From a virus, in the IMG/VR virus record IMGVR_UViG_3300006310_000773: a stretch of DNA of 64,000 nucleotides, one strand, 5' to 3'. A program made the position numbers and the translations under genes. Below, one piece after another: positions 59,019 to 63,534 of this stretch (position 1 is its first letter; each line of letters begins with the position of its first letter). The notes beneath the pieces are model-generated. The model was not told the DNA's origin and searched no databases. It saw only the letters and a program-made list of their open reading frames with translations.

Positions 59019-59102
59019 CTACCCACACCCACAATCACCATTTTTACATTCACAAGGATCACAAGTACAATTTTCACACTCGCATTGTTCGTTATTACAC
59101 AT
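59019..59102 (-). CDS. 27-aa Cys-rich metallothionein-like peptide (absent from the ORF track)
   Basis: AGGAG RBS then MCNNEQCECENCTCDPCECKNGDCGCG*; 9 Cys, four CxC pairs. Confidence 0.75.
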   Translation of the reverse strand: MCNNEQCECENCTCDPCECKNGDCGCG

Positions 59103-59945: not shown

Positions 59946-60290
59946 GGTCAGTTCTTCTGTTCCCAAGTGACTGACCTGAACTCGGCTATAGTCTACGCAG
60001 CGAGTGCGTAAGAGTATGCGGTATAATCGTCATTGTTTGCGATTAATTTAATGGACCGTTACGGTGGTGCCTCTACCGAATACCTCTATATCTACCTTCA
60101 CAATCAATCGAAATCTATTTCAGCCCCATCAACGAAAGTCATATCCAAAATAAAGTGTGACATAGGTAATACCTAAAGCGAGCAATATCATTATTGTGAG
60201 CCACATTAATTTCTTTTCCATAACTTCCTTTGGTGGAGCTGATCGGAATCGCACCGATGTCTTAACTGTTATCTAGATATGTCAACAGTA
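59946..60290 (-). ncRNA. ssrA: Circularly permuted (two-piece) tmRNA gene: acceptor piece ~60290-60231, coding piece 60127-~59946
   Basis: Acceptor piece ends ATCGG-TGCGATT-CCGAT-CAGCTCC-A-CCA. Coding piece starts GGGGCTG (7-bp stem with G3.U70). Helix-2 pairings TTGATTGT/ACAGTTAA and TAGATAT/ATATCTA. Tag frame 60040-59993 is ANNDDYTAYSYALAA*, flanked by pseudoknots. Confidence 0.92.
60129..60221 (-). CDS. 30-aa single-TM peptide nested in the tmRNA intervening segment
   Basis: AAGGA RBS right after the CCA; MEKKLMWLTIMILLALGITYVTLYFGYDFR*; stop lies 1 nt before GGGGCTG. Confidence 0.7.
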   Translation of the reverse strand: MEKKLMWLTIMILLALGITYVTLYFGYDFR

Positions 60291-60938
60291 TCAATAACTA
60301 TTTATAACCTCCTGTAATCTTTCTACATGTTCATCAGGATCCGCATAAAAAATTTGTGGTGTTCCATCAACTACTGCAATAACTATAACTACTTGAGTTA
60401 CTTTATTTCCTGTTCTTTCTTCATACATCTTTGCATATGCAGTTCCCTGTAATTTATAACTTTCTATCCATTCTTCTTTTTTTGGTTTAGAAGAGGTTTT
60501 CCAATCTATTATAGAAATTTCATCATCATATTCAGCAATACAATCACATCTACCAGCTACTCCAAGAAATTTAGACCACAAAGATACCTCAAGACCATAA
60601 ATTTTTCCAATATGAGTATTTAAAATTGATTGAACTGATTGAAATAACTCAATAGAATCAGGCATATGCCCACTCAAATAATCTTGCTGATTTTTGAGAT
60701 AGTCTTCGATAATCGAATGCGTTCTTGTTCCTCTTCGCGAAGCTTGTGTTGAGATTCTATTGGCTTCTTCTTCTCCAACCCGCTTTCTCCAAGCCTGTAT
60801 ACCAGCTTTGGACAAAGATGATAATACTGTAGTGATACTCGGGAAATTTCCATCTGGTGTCTCGTATAATCTTTTTCCTGAAGTATTTATTTGTTTTATT
60901 TGACCAGGAATATCAACTGTTTCGTGTAAAAAATTCAT
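60291..60938 (-). CDS. PD-(D/E)XK exonuclease (Cas4-like phage exonuclease)
   Basis: RLYETPDG..PSITTVL; WRKRVGEEEA; RGTRTH; AGRCDCIAEY..IIDWKTS; Q..AY. Confidence 0.88.
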   Translation of the reverse strand: MNFLHETVDIPGQIKQINTSGKRLYETPDGNFPSITTVLSSLSKAGIQAWRKRVGEEEANRISTQASRRGTRTHSIIEDYLKNQQDYLSGHMPDSIELFQSVQSILNTHIGKIYGLEVSLWSKFLGVAGRCDCIAEYDDEISIIDWKTSSKPKKEEWIESYKLQGTAYAKMYEERTGNKVTQVVIVIAVVDGTPQIFYADPDEHVERLQEVINSY

Positions 60939-61195: not shown

Positions 61196-61513
61196 TTATT
61201 CTGATTCTCTTAATGTTACTAGTAAAGGGTATTTATTTTTCTTAGCTTCTTCTAATGTATCAACCGCTTTTTGCTCTGCTATTTGATATGAATAAAGTCC
61301 CGCCACACCTTCTCCTAATTTATGTACATTTAACATAATTCTTTCAGCATCAGGTGTAGTTTTATTAAAAATACTTTTTAATATATAAATAACAAATTCC
61401 ATAGGAGTATAATCATCATTTAAAAGTATAACAAAATAAGTTTTAGGAACTTTTGAATTTATACTTTTCTTTTTCCTAACCTTAATTTTATCTTTTACAT
61501 CTATGTTTGACAT
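61196..61513 (-). CDS. clpS: ATP-dependent Clp protease adaptor ClpS
   Basis: VILLNDDYTPMEFVI..IMLNVHKLGEGVAG..AEQK..YPL. Confidence 0.93.
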   Translation of the reverse strand: MSNIDVKDKIKVRKKKSINSKVPKTYFVILLNDDYTPMEFVIYILKSIFNKTTPDAERIMLNVHKLGEGVAGLYSYQIAEQKAVDTLEEAKKNKYPLLVTLRESE

Positions 61514-62361: not shown

Positions 62362-62435
62362 TGGAGCGAGTAAGAGGAATCGAACCCCTATCATCAGGTT
62401 GGAAACCTGAGGTACTACCTTTGTACGATACTCGC
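62362..62435 (-). tRNA. tRNA-Gly(TCC)
   Basis: GCGAGTA/TACTCGC acceptor stem, U73, encoded CCA; anticodon arm TCAGG-TTTCCAA-CCTGA; T-loop TTCGATT. Confidence 0.93.
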
Positions 62436-63461: not shown

Positions 63462-63534
63462 TGGAGCGAATGCATGGAATTGCACCATGATCTCAAGGTT
63501 GGAGCCCTGTATTCTGCTTTTGAACTACATTCGC
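63462..63534 (-). tRNA. Aberrant tRNA-Gly-like gene (6-nt anticodon loop, no D-loop GG, T-loop TGCAATT)
   Basis: GCGAATG/CATTCGC acceptor stem, U73, CCA; CAGGG-CTCCAA-CCTTG; CATGG-TGCAATT-CCATG. Confidence 0.75.

Follow-up and report, generated by a model that had tools for sequence, protein, structure and literature searches.

The window, the whole stretch of 64,000 nucleotides of viral DNA that was analysed, originates from a marine T4-like myophage, with a gp5-like baseplate hub ~39% identical to those of Vibrio and cyanophage T4-like phages. The locus studied here belongs to a same-strand array of genes for a glycosyltransferase, ClpS, a Zn-ribbon protein, a PD-(D/E)XK nuclease, a tmRNA, a 75-aa protein and a 2OG-Fe(II) oxygenase, and Pfam/PHROG annotation of the region places an SNase gene among the tmRNA neighbours as well. 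Because ClpS is encoded near the tmRNA and on the same strand, two parts of the tagged-protein degradation pathway lie close together in this phage. The nearest virus record, a 30%-complete fragment, gave no tmRNA match. The features of the locus are as follows.

61199-61513, minus strand: homologue of the ClpS adaptor (99 bits with Pfam PF02617), located ~1 kb upstream of the tmRNA
60343..59946, minus strand: match to the alpha_tmRNA model (Rfam RF01849, 62.9 bits)
60292..59993, minus strand: circularly permuted (two-piece) tmRNA of the alpha type (Rfam RF04321, 111.8 bits, E=5.6e-21, full model 1-213)
60231..60292, minus strand: acceptor piece, with T-arm, 3' acceptor strand CAGCUCC, discriminator A and encoded CCA (RF04321 consensus alignment and sequence)
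60230..60128, minus strand: intervening segment (IVS, or spacer) of 103 nt, from CCA to GGGGCUG (an insert in the RF04321 alignment; homologues delimited in 66 viral loci)
60230..60224, minus strand: Shine-Dalgarno-like purine-rich leader AAGGAAG, seen in the sequence, overlapping the 5' strand of the closing helix
60228..60219, minus strand: 5' strand of the closing helix, GGAAGUUAUG, covering the Shine-Dalgarno (SD) motif and start codon (minimum free energy (MFE) folds, fixed-register pairing)
60221..60129, minus strand: nested gene, family A, 30 codons and TGA (ATG 60221..60219, sense codons to 60132, TGA 60131..60129)
60143..60134, minus strand: 3' strand of the closing helix, UAUGACUUUC, within codons 27-30 (Y-D-F-R) (MFE folds, fixed-register pairing)
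60128..60133, minus strand: single-stranded leader GUUGAU, 6 nt, which holds the UGA stop, precedes the expected RNase P site and recurs in almost every spacer, whether an ORF is present or not
60127..59993, minus strand: coding piece, with the 5' acceptor strand GGGGCUG from 60127, then the tag frame (RF04321 alignment and sequence)

Both tmRNA matches exceed the Rfam cut-offs (47 bits for RF04321 and 50 bits for RF01849); ARAGORN missed this tmRNA. The order of the parts is that of a permuted tmRNA, with T-arm, 3' acceptor strand and CCA preceding the 5' acceptor strand and the tag frame in the gene. The acceptor piece ends at 60231 with ...GCTCCACCA (RNA reading ...GGUGCGAUUCCGAUCAGCUCCACCA), and the coding piece starts at 60127 with GGGGCUGAAAUAG. 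GGGGCUG pairs with CAGCUCC, giving the alanine identity element G3:U70, and this G3-U is kept in diverged relatives, such as L391 with GGGACGG/CCGUUCC. The tag reading frame runs from GCA at 60040 to the TAG ending at 59993 and reads ANNDDYTAYSYALAA, with a resume codon and a hydrophobic C-terminus (..LAA). We infer the position of the RNase P cleavage site from the tRNA-like 5' end. From what is known of maturation in the permuted tmRNA family (PMC11915505), the mature tmRNA should lack the IVS and consist of two RNA pieces held together by base pairing.

The surroundings of the tmRNA yielded several further observations. A hairpin after the tag stop (59946-59976, minus strand; L391:361-391; L069:~757-785) has an almost identical loop, CACUUGGGAACAGAAGA, and a stem that is wholly changed yet pairing (GGUCAGU/ACUGACC versus GGGGGAU/AUCCCCC); since the alpha_tmRNA model covers it at its 3' end, this hairpin probably represents the coding piece's known terminal helix. 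A 27-aa Cys-rich ORF with the motif C-x-C-D-P-C-E-C lies at 59019-59102 (minus strand), downstream of the tmRNA by four genes. A normal tRNA-Gly(TCC) is present at 62362-62435, and at 63462-63534 (minus strand) ARAGORN called a tRNA with an undetermined two-base 'cc' anticodon (Rfam tRNA score 49 bits).

The open reading frame in the spacer

An earlier note on this DNA, made from the sequence alone, had described a ribosome-binding site AAGGAAG and a 93-nt ORF filling almost exactly the 103-nt segment between CCA and GGGGCTG, and the coordinates and the RF04321 alignment agree exactly with this description. The 9-nt leader of the IVS, AAGGAAGTT (RNA reading AAGGAAGUU), directly precedes the ATG, and a single T (60128) separates the TGA from the start of GGGGCTG at 60127. 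The distance from AGGA to ATG is 4 nt, a short spacing that, together with the predicted pairing of the SD motif (see below), speaks against a functional gene; among relatives the leader also reads AAGAAAG, AGGAATG or AGGGAAG, and an SD-like motif 3-12 nt upstream was found for 21 of the 49 long ORFs of the window. The ORF translates as MEKKLMWLTIMILLALGITYVTLYFGYDFR, a short charged N-terminus followed by a 21-residue hydrophobic core (mean Kyte-Doolittle 2.04 over residues 5-25), and the other two reading frames of the IVS are full of stops. A complete ATG-to-stop ORF of at least 28 codons arose in 0.9% of shuffles of the 103-mer; the presence of the ORF alone is thus only mildly improbable, and the case rests on comparative data and not on the shuffle figure.

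Relatives were collected with an exact 25-mer spanning the T-arm and acceptor end, which retrieved 69 IMG/VR loci (spacer delimited in 66), and with a DNA pattern back-translated from the N-terminus of the peptide, which added further family A members. Family A thereby comprises 53 loci with 34 different nucleotide sequences, which encode 30 different peptides. Each of the 34 sequences is open and exactly 30 codons long with no indel in the ORF, the sole indel in the family being one base in the leader. Across these sequences, 32 of 73 distinct single-base variants are synonymous versus 22% expected (binomial P=2e-5), and replacements to charged or polar residues or Pro in the membrane core number 0 of 30 observed versus 40 of 133 possible (Fisher P=1e-4), these variant counts not being independent events because the metagenomic sequences are related. 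Among the 26 first-collected sequences, pairwise pN/pS was 0.37 in frame, whereas the two other frames gave 0.57 and 1.64; the third codon position was the most variable (16.9 bits, versus 11.2 for the first and 6.4 for the second). Part of the conservation at the ends of the ORF (MEK..., ...YDFR) may be at the RNA level, because an RNA helix, described below, also constrains its start and end. Besides family A, at least five divergent peptide versions place an ATG 9-15 nt after CCA, encode a membrane helix and have their stop in or just before the 3' strand of that helix. The earlier note had asked that ORF conservation and dN/dS be examined in phage permuted-tmRNA spacers, and the 34 open sequences, the pN/pS of 0.37 and the synonymous excess all came out on the side of a gene; its reading of the product as a one-helix membrane peptide is supported by the amino-acid-level selection in homologues and the hydrophobic core. 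We take these comparisons as strong evidence that the ORF is under protein-level, hydrophobicity-preserving selection, as a translated peptide would be.

The peptide resembles little that is on record. It had no match in Pfam (E<=0.01) or PHROG, public gene calls contain no gene whose product is identical to that of the window ORF, and searches of 50,697 phage records with the tmRNA (blastn) and the peptide (tblastn), a set that may lack near relatives, gave no match; a homologue search with a 41-aa GTG-extended frame likewise found nothing. A language-model comparison gave weak resemblance to the enterobacterial small membrane proteins YoaK (0.85) and YncL (0.77), below the level of 0.9 at which a lead is taken up, and neither the YoaK (PF28021) nor the YncL (PF28073) profile was matched in Pfam at E<=0.01.

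Closing helix and contents of the spacer

Pairing between GGAAGUUAUG and UAUGACUUUC was seen in MFE folds of the spacer alone and within the tRNA-like domain. A closing helix of ~10 bp, in which spacer position i faces L-3-i, is common to every spacer class and covaries over 51 distinct spacers: pairs 3-12 are formed in 95% of cells versus 42-51% when the register is slid by 1-3 nt, and compensatory changes occur at pairs 3, 6, 7, 8, 9 and 10. The bases of its 3' strand are almost invariant among the 26 first-collected family A sequences, so that the near-invariance of the last five codons of the ORF reflects a double constraint, coding and helix. Thermodynamic prediction gave a duplex energy of about -9.8 kcal/mol and a mean P(unpaired) of 0.09 for the SD-AUG region in both the precursor and the excised spacer; this value rose, up to 0.83, only after removal of 16 nt from the 3' end, a trimming that would remove the stop codon too.

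Spacers without an ORF consist of just the closing hairpin with a tri- to penta-loop, followed by GUUGAU and GGGG, so a stem-loop is the ancestral or minimal form of the spacer. The spacer genes occupy the loop of this stem-loop: they start within the 5' strand, and their stop codon falls inside the 3' strand or immediately beyond it. The distance from stop to cleavage site is 9-12 nt in the other peptide families. The 66 parsed loci contain the following.

37 of 66 loci: family A homologue of 30 codons
11 of 66 loci: other one-helix peptides of 27-30 residues (MDKVLTWFFTLTLLGMGIAWFYLNYSM, MQKIGIVIVVSLLLWCAIIYAVVYFGII, MSSADMAILVVLIVIGIIMTGTYFYFGG, MNNNKKLILSTIAISGWVLAAYIIVNYYL and others)
2 of 66 loci: family B, a hydrophilic basic protein of 56 residues
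14 of 66 loci: only 25-27 nt, with no ORF
2 of 66 loci (L007, L065): 42-nt remnant left by a deletion in family A

An ORF of at least 27 codons is therefore present in 50 of 66 parsed spacers, 48 of which encode one-helix peptides. The earlier note had held that its reading would fail if related spacers lacked an ORF: this is so in the 14 loci with a hairpin only and in the two remnants, and not in the other 50. The remnants retain both helix strands and the first four codons and have lost 61 nt of the loop, which shows that the tmRNA needs the closing helix, not the ORF. The tmRNAs with empty or deletion-remnant spacers still score 92-117 bits with Rfam, and the cargo is therefore dispensable for the tmRNA. 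The gene has been lost repeatedly, yet it is conserved wherever it is present.

The closing helix and the exchangeability of the spacer contents go beyond what the earlier note had described. On a tree of the mature tmRNA, built from a short alignment and of low resolution, the spacer types (family A, other peptides, family B, none) are interspersed. Some spacers are 83-86% identical to that of the window where the mature pieces are only 61-67% identical, and others are 71-95% identical where the mature pieces are 94-100% identical; this decoupling of spacer and tmRNA identity suggests exchange by recombination. Family B proteins (54-59 aa, hydrophilic) were also found in L069 and L158. The family has 209 protein clusters in the protein collection and occurs free-standing in L186 and L192, where Rfam finds no tmRNA; because of these clusters and free-standing copies, spacer ORFs include a bona fide gene. 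Both free-standing copies (L186:1501-1830, L192:1501-1852) are followed immediately by a Cys-rich small ORF (MACTN..CDPCEC..) and, further on, by ClpP; the small ORF shares C-x-C-D-P-C-E-C with the 27-aa Cys-rich ORF of the window.

Family A itself was found in no other setting. Full-length matches to the N-terminal pattern are without exception flanked by ...CUCCACCA, or its covarying equivalent, on one side and by the GGGG... of a permuted tmRNA on the other, and the host tmRNAs include some with quite different T-arms and acceptor stems (L359, L360, L363, L369 and L391). A profile hidden Markov model of the peptides, run against 12,041 small ORFs from ~250 loci, gave significant matches in spacers only. 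When 1.84 billion protein representatives were searched exhaustively with a profile, only five clusters came up, all with sequences that fit a spacer origin. DNA was examined for two of the five. It confirmed a tmRNA spacer location for the 30-residue form; a 62-aa form, considered as a case of stop-codon loss, was rejected as a gene call made with TGA=W, the DNA having a normal TGA inside the tmRNA. A 44-aa 'read-through' form seems to have arisen in this way too. On some phage contigs (for example, L391:123-308), public gene calls were made with TGA=W, which accounts for false 'extended' peptides running into the coding piece of the tmRNA. In everything searched, family A thus appears restricted to tmRNA spacers.

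Comparison with other tmRNAs and known systems

In a sample of alphaproteobacterial genomes, 146 of 151 had a tmRNA over the cut-off, with matches mostly of 181-260 nt. The cellular spacers had a median length of 36 nt, the range being 5 to about 150 nt (35 parsed loci, longest matches included; 11 of 46 loci were unparsed, and L331, at 354 nt, was probably mis-parsed), and an SD-led membrane-peptide ORF filling the spacer was found in none of the 35. These figures accord with the earlier note's premise that the spacer is normally non-coding. In the Rickettsiales metagenome-assembled genome L315 (G003:C133:4367-4737), the permuted tmRNA match spans 371 nt and includes a spacer of ~154 nt, in which the longest ORF has 31 codons, is GC-rich, has no obvious SD motif and is unlike the phage peptides. 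Other phage permuted tmRNAs, retrieved with a looser pattern, have hairpin spacers of 29-89 nt with no credible ORF, so that in our sample occupancy by an ORF is lineage-specific.

Full-text searches of the searchable literature returned no description of a gene in a tmRNA spacer, and to that extent the earlier note was right to call the arrangement undescribed. A two-piece ssrA has been published for Methylophilales phage Melnitz and pelagimyophages (Buchholz et al. 2022, PMC9004378), with a glutamine riboswitch in the tmRNA 3' domain; the word 'intervening' is absent from that text, and the accessible parts of the paper make no mention of a spacer ORF. The window resembles these phages in encoding an alpha-type permuted tmRNA in a marine T4-like genome and differs from them in the riboswitch, none reaching threshold in an Rfam scan of the window. 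The 2025 tmRNA database (PMC11915505) lists T-loop group I introns, 36 of 883 with homing-endonuclease genes, together with one spacer holding a tRNA-Ala gene and one a repeat element; neither 'ORF' nor 'open reading' appears as a term in the paper. The present case likewise has foreign content in a tmRNA gene, but it includes no mobility gene, nor does the spacer splice itself.

The closest analogue is the IVS of Coxiella burnetii 23S rRNA, which carries an S23p ORF and is excised by RNase III; according to the accessible part of that report, the ORF appears to be untranslated in vivo and decaying (PMC4990558). Both are stem-closed, ORF-bearing spacers of a stable-RNA precursor, excision being presumed in our case. 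They differ in that the host RNA here is a tmRNA, that RNase P and 3' trimming are the expected processing activities and that the ORF is under purifying selection; the S23p protein and family A are unrelated, as the peptide has no Pfam match. The family A spacer is therefore an analogue of the S23p IVS and not a member of its class.

Messenger RNAs bounded by tRNA processing include those of mitochondrial 'tRNA punctuation', the ORFs of the phage T4 tRNA cluster and E. coli tyrT-tpr. As in these, the spacer gene is a coding sequence between a tRNA-like 3' end and an RNase P site on one precursor; unlike in these, both boundaries come from one tRNA-like domain, and the mRNA replaces the loop that joins the two strands of a single acceptor stem. 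A ribosome-binding site shut by long-range 5'-3' pairing is known from the fold-back inhibition of hok mRNA and from the MS2 maturation gene. Here too the SD motif and start codon are sequestered by a distant downstream segment, and translation would then be possible only on nascent or 3'-processed RNA, but the 3' trimming that frees the SD motif (16 nt) also removes the stop codon. What was already known is the permuted phage tmRNA and the existence of ORF-bearing excised spacers; what the searched literature does not describe is a conserved nested gene in a structured, exchangeable spacer.

Expression and possible functions of the nested gene

We consider it probable that the spacer holds a real gene for a 30-residue single-pass membrane peptide, set in the loop of a stem-closed IVS, carried by the tmRNA precursor, loaded with ribosomes while nascent and destroyed as a message by maturation. 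Promoter and terminator scans of the tmRNA region gave nothing above chance level, and the transcription unit of tmRNA and ORF is for this reason one that we infer. With no promoter of its own evident, and in a same-strand array following the PD-(D/E)XK nuclease gene, the tmRNA precursor would be the only mRNA of the peptide. Because the ribosome-binding site is paired at equilibrium, loading on nascent RNA is probable: ribosomes would load mainly before the 3' strand, ~80 nt downstream, is made, much as for the MS2 maturation gene. The helix would then close, RNase P would cleave one base beyond the UGA, and the message would be lost as the 3' end is trimmed to CCA. Since maturation would destroy the message, we propose that the output of peptide is tied to tmRNA transcription and capped per transcript.

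Could the ORF instead be an accident of an AT-rich, structured RNA conserved for folding or processing only? The closing helix is a clear RNA-level constraint, present with or without an ORF, and no public gene call has exactly this product. Against this stand the loop interior, which is third-position-biased, enriched in synonymous changes, without stops or indels and strict in its preserved hydrophobicity; the divergent peptide versions, at least five, that keep ATG, membrane helix and stop placement; and the rarity in shuffles of even one such ORF. We give a non-coding spacer almost no credence. It is also very improbable that the ORF is of the regulatory leader type, its translation opening the helix and acceptor stem and so timing RNase P processing, with the peptide immaterial. 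The start and stop regions do lie inside or beside the closing helix, where a terminating ribosome would cover the acceptor stem. Such a role, however, calls only for an open frame, whereas selection acts on amino-acid sequence and hydrophobicity; the timing would differ greatly among unrelated spacer ORFs, which span 27 to 59 codons, and ORF-less spacers occur with intact tmRNA genes.

The product of the gene is most likely a small inner-membrane host-takeover or accessory protein, carried in a well-expressed exchangeable slot. The peptide shares with type I toxins of the Hok kind the small hydrophobic form and the structure-locked mRNA (30 aa and one helix, with a predicted P(unpaired) of 0.09). 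Such toxins also have a cognate antisense RNA antitoxin and are toxic on expression; the general promoter scan of the region stood at chance level. A holin was considered and rejected: the neighbours include no lysis genes (endolysin, spanin), the C-terminal tail, usually charged in holins, is only GYDFR, and there is no PHROG match. Nothing was found in support of the toxin-, holin- or exclusion-like role that the earlier note had suggested, there being no family match and no adjacent lysis genes.

FtsH is a membrane protease that degrades ssrA-tagged proteins. The peptide might work together with the phage's takeover of trans-translation and proteolysis, for example by modulating FtsH or as a built-in tmRNA substrate; in the latter variant, RNase P cleavage would leave the stop codon 1 nt from the 3' end, to be removed first by exonucleases. 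Several observations are in line with such a functional partnership, which we regard as rather unlikely: family A occurs only in tmRNA spacers, across differing T-arms and acceptor stems; between distant relatives the mature tmRNA has diverged more than the spacer; ClpS is encoded ~1 kb upstream on the same strand; free-standing family B adjoins ClpP; and the UGA lies 1 nt from the expected RNase P site. Yet in close relatives with intact tmRNA the slot takes an unrelated hydrophilic protein or nothing, and the stop of the other peptide families lies 9-12 nt before the cleavage site. Speculative to a similar degree is the wider proposal that the IVS is a dedicated exchangeable slot, in which translation and maturation are mutually exclusive and kinetically ordered and whose spacer-only cargo of 27-30 residues acts with a tmRNA/Clp takeover of host protein quality control.

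Spacers of tmRNAs are treated as throw-away RNA, and annotation pipelines mask them. By the present comparisons, the spacer in a widespread group of marine T4-like phages is usually a messenger for a conserved membrane peptide, as well as a slot in which small genes are swapped, and the precursor of a stable RNA thereby joins the known hiding places of microproteins. The locus would also offer a compact natural system in which to study how translation and RNase P processing compete on one RNA, and one may ask of it, by experiment, whether phages couple the peptide to the way they take over ribosome rescue and proteolysis.
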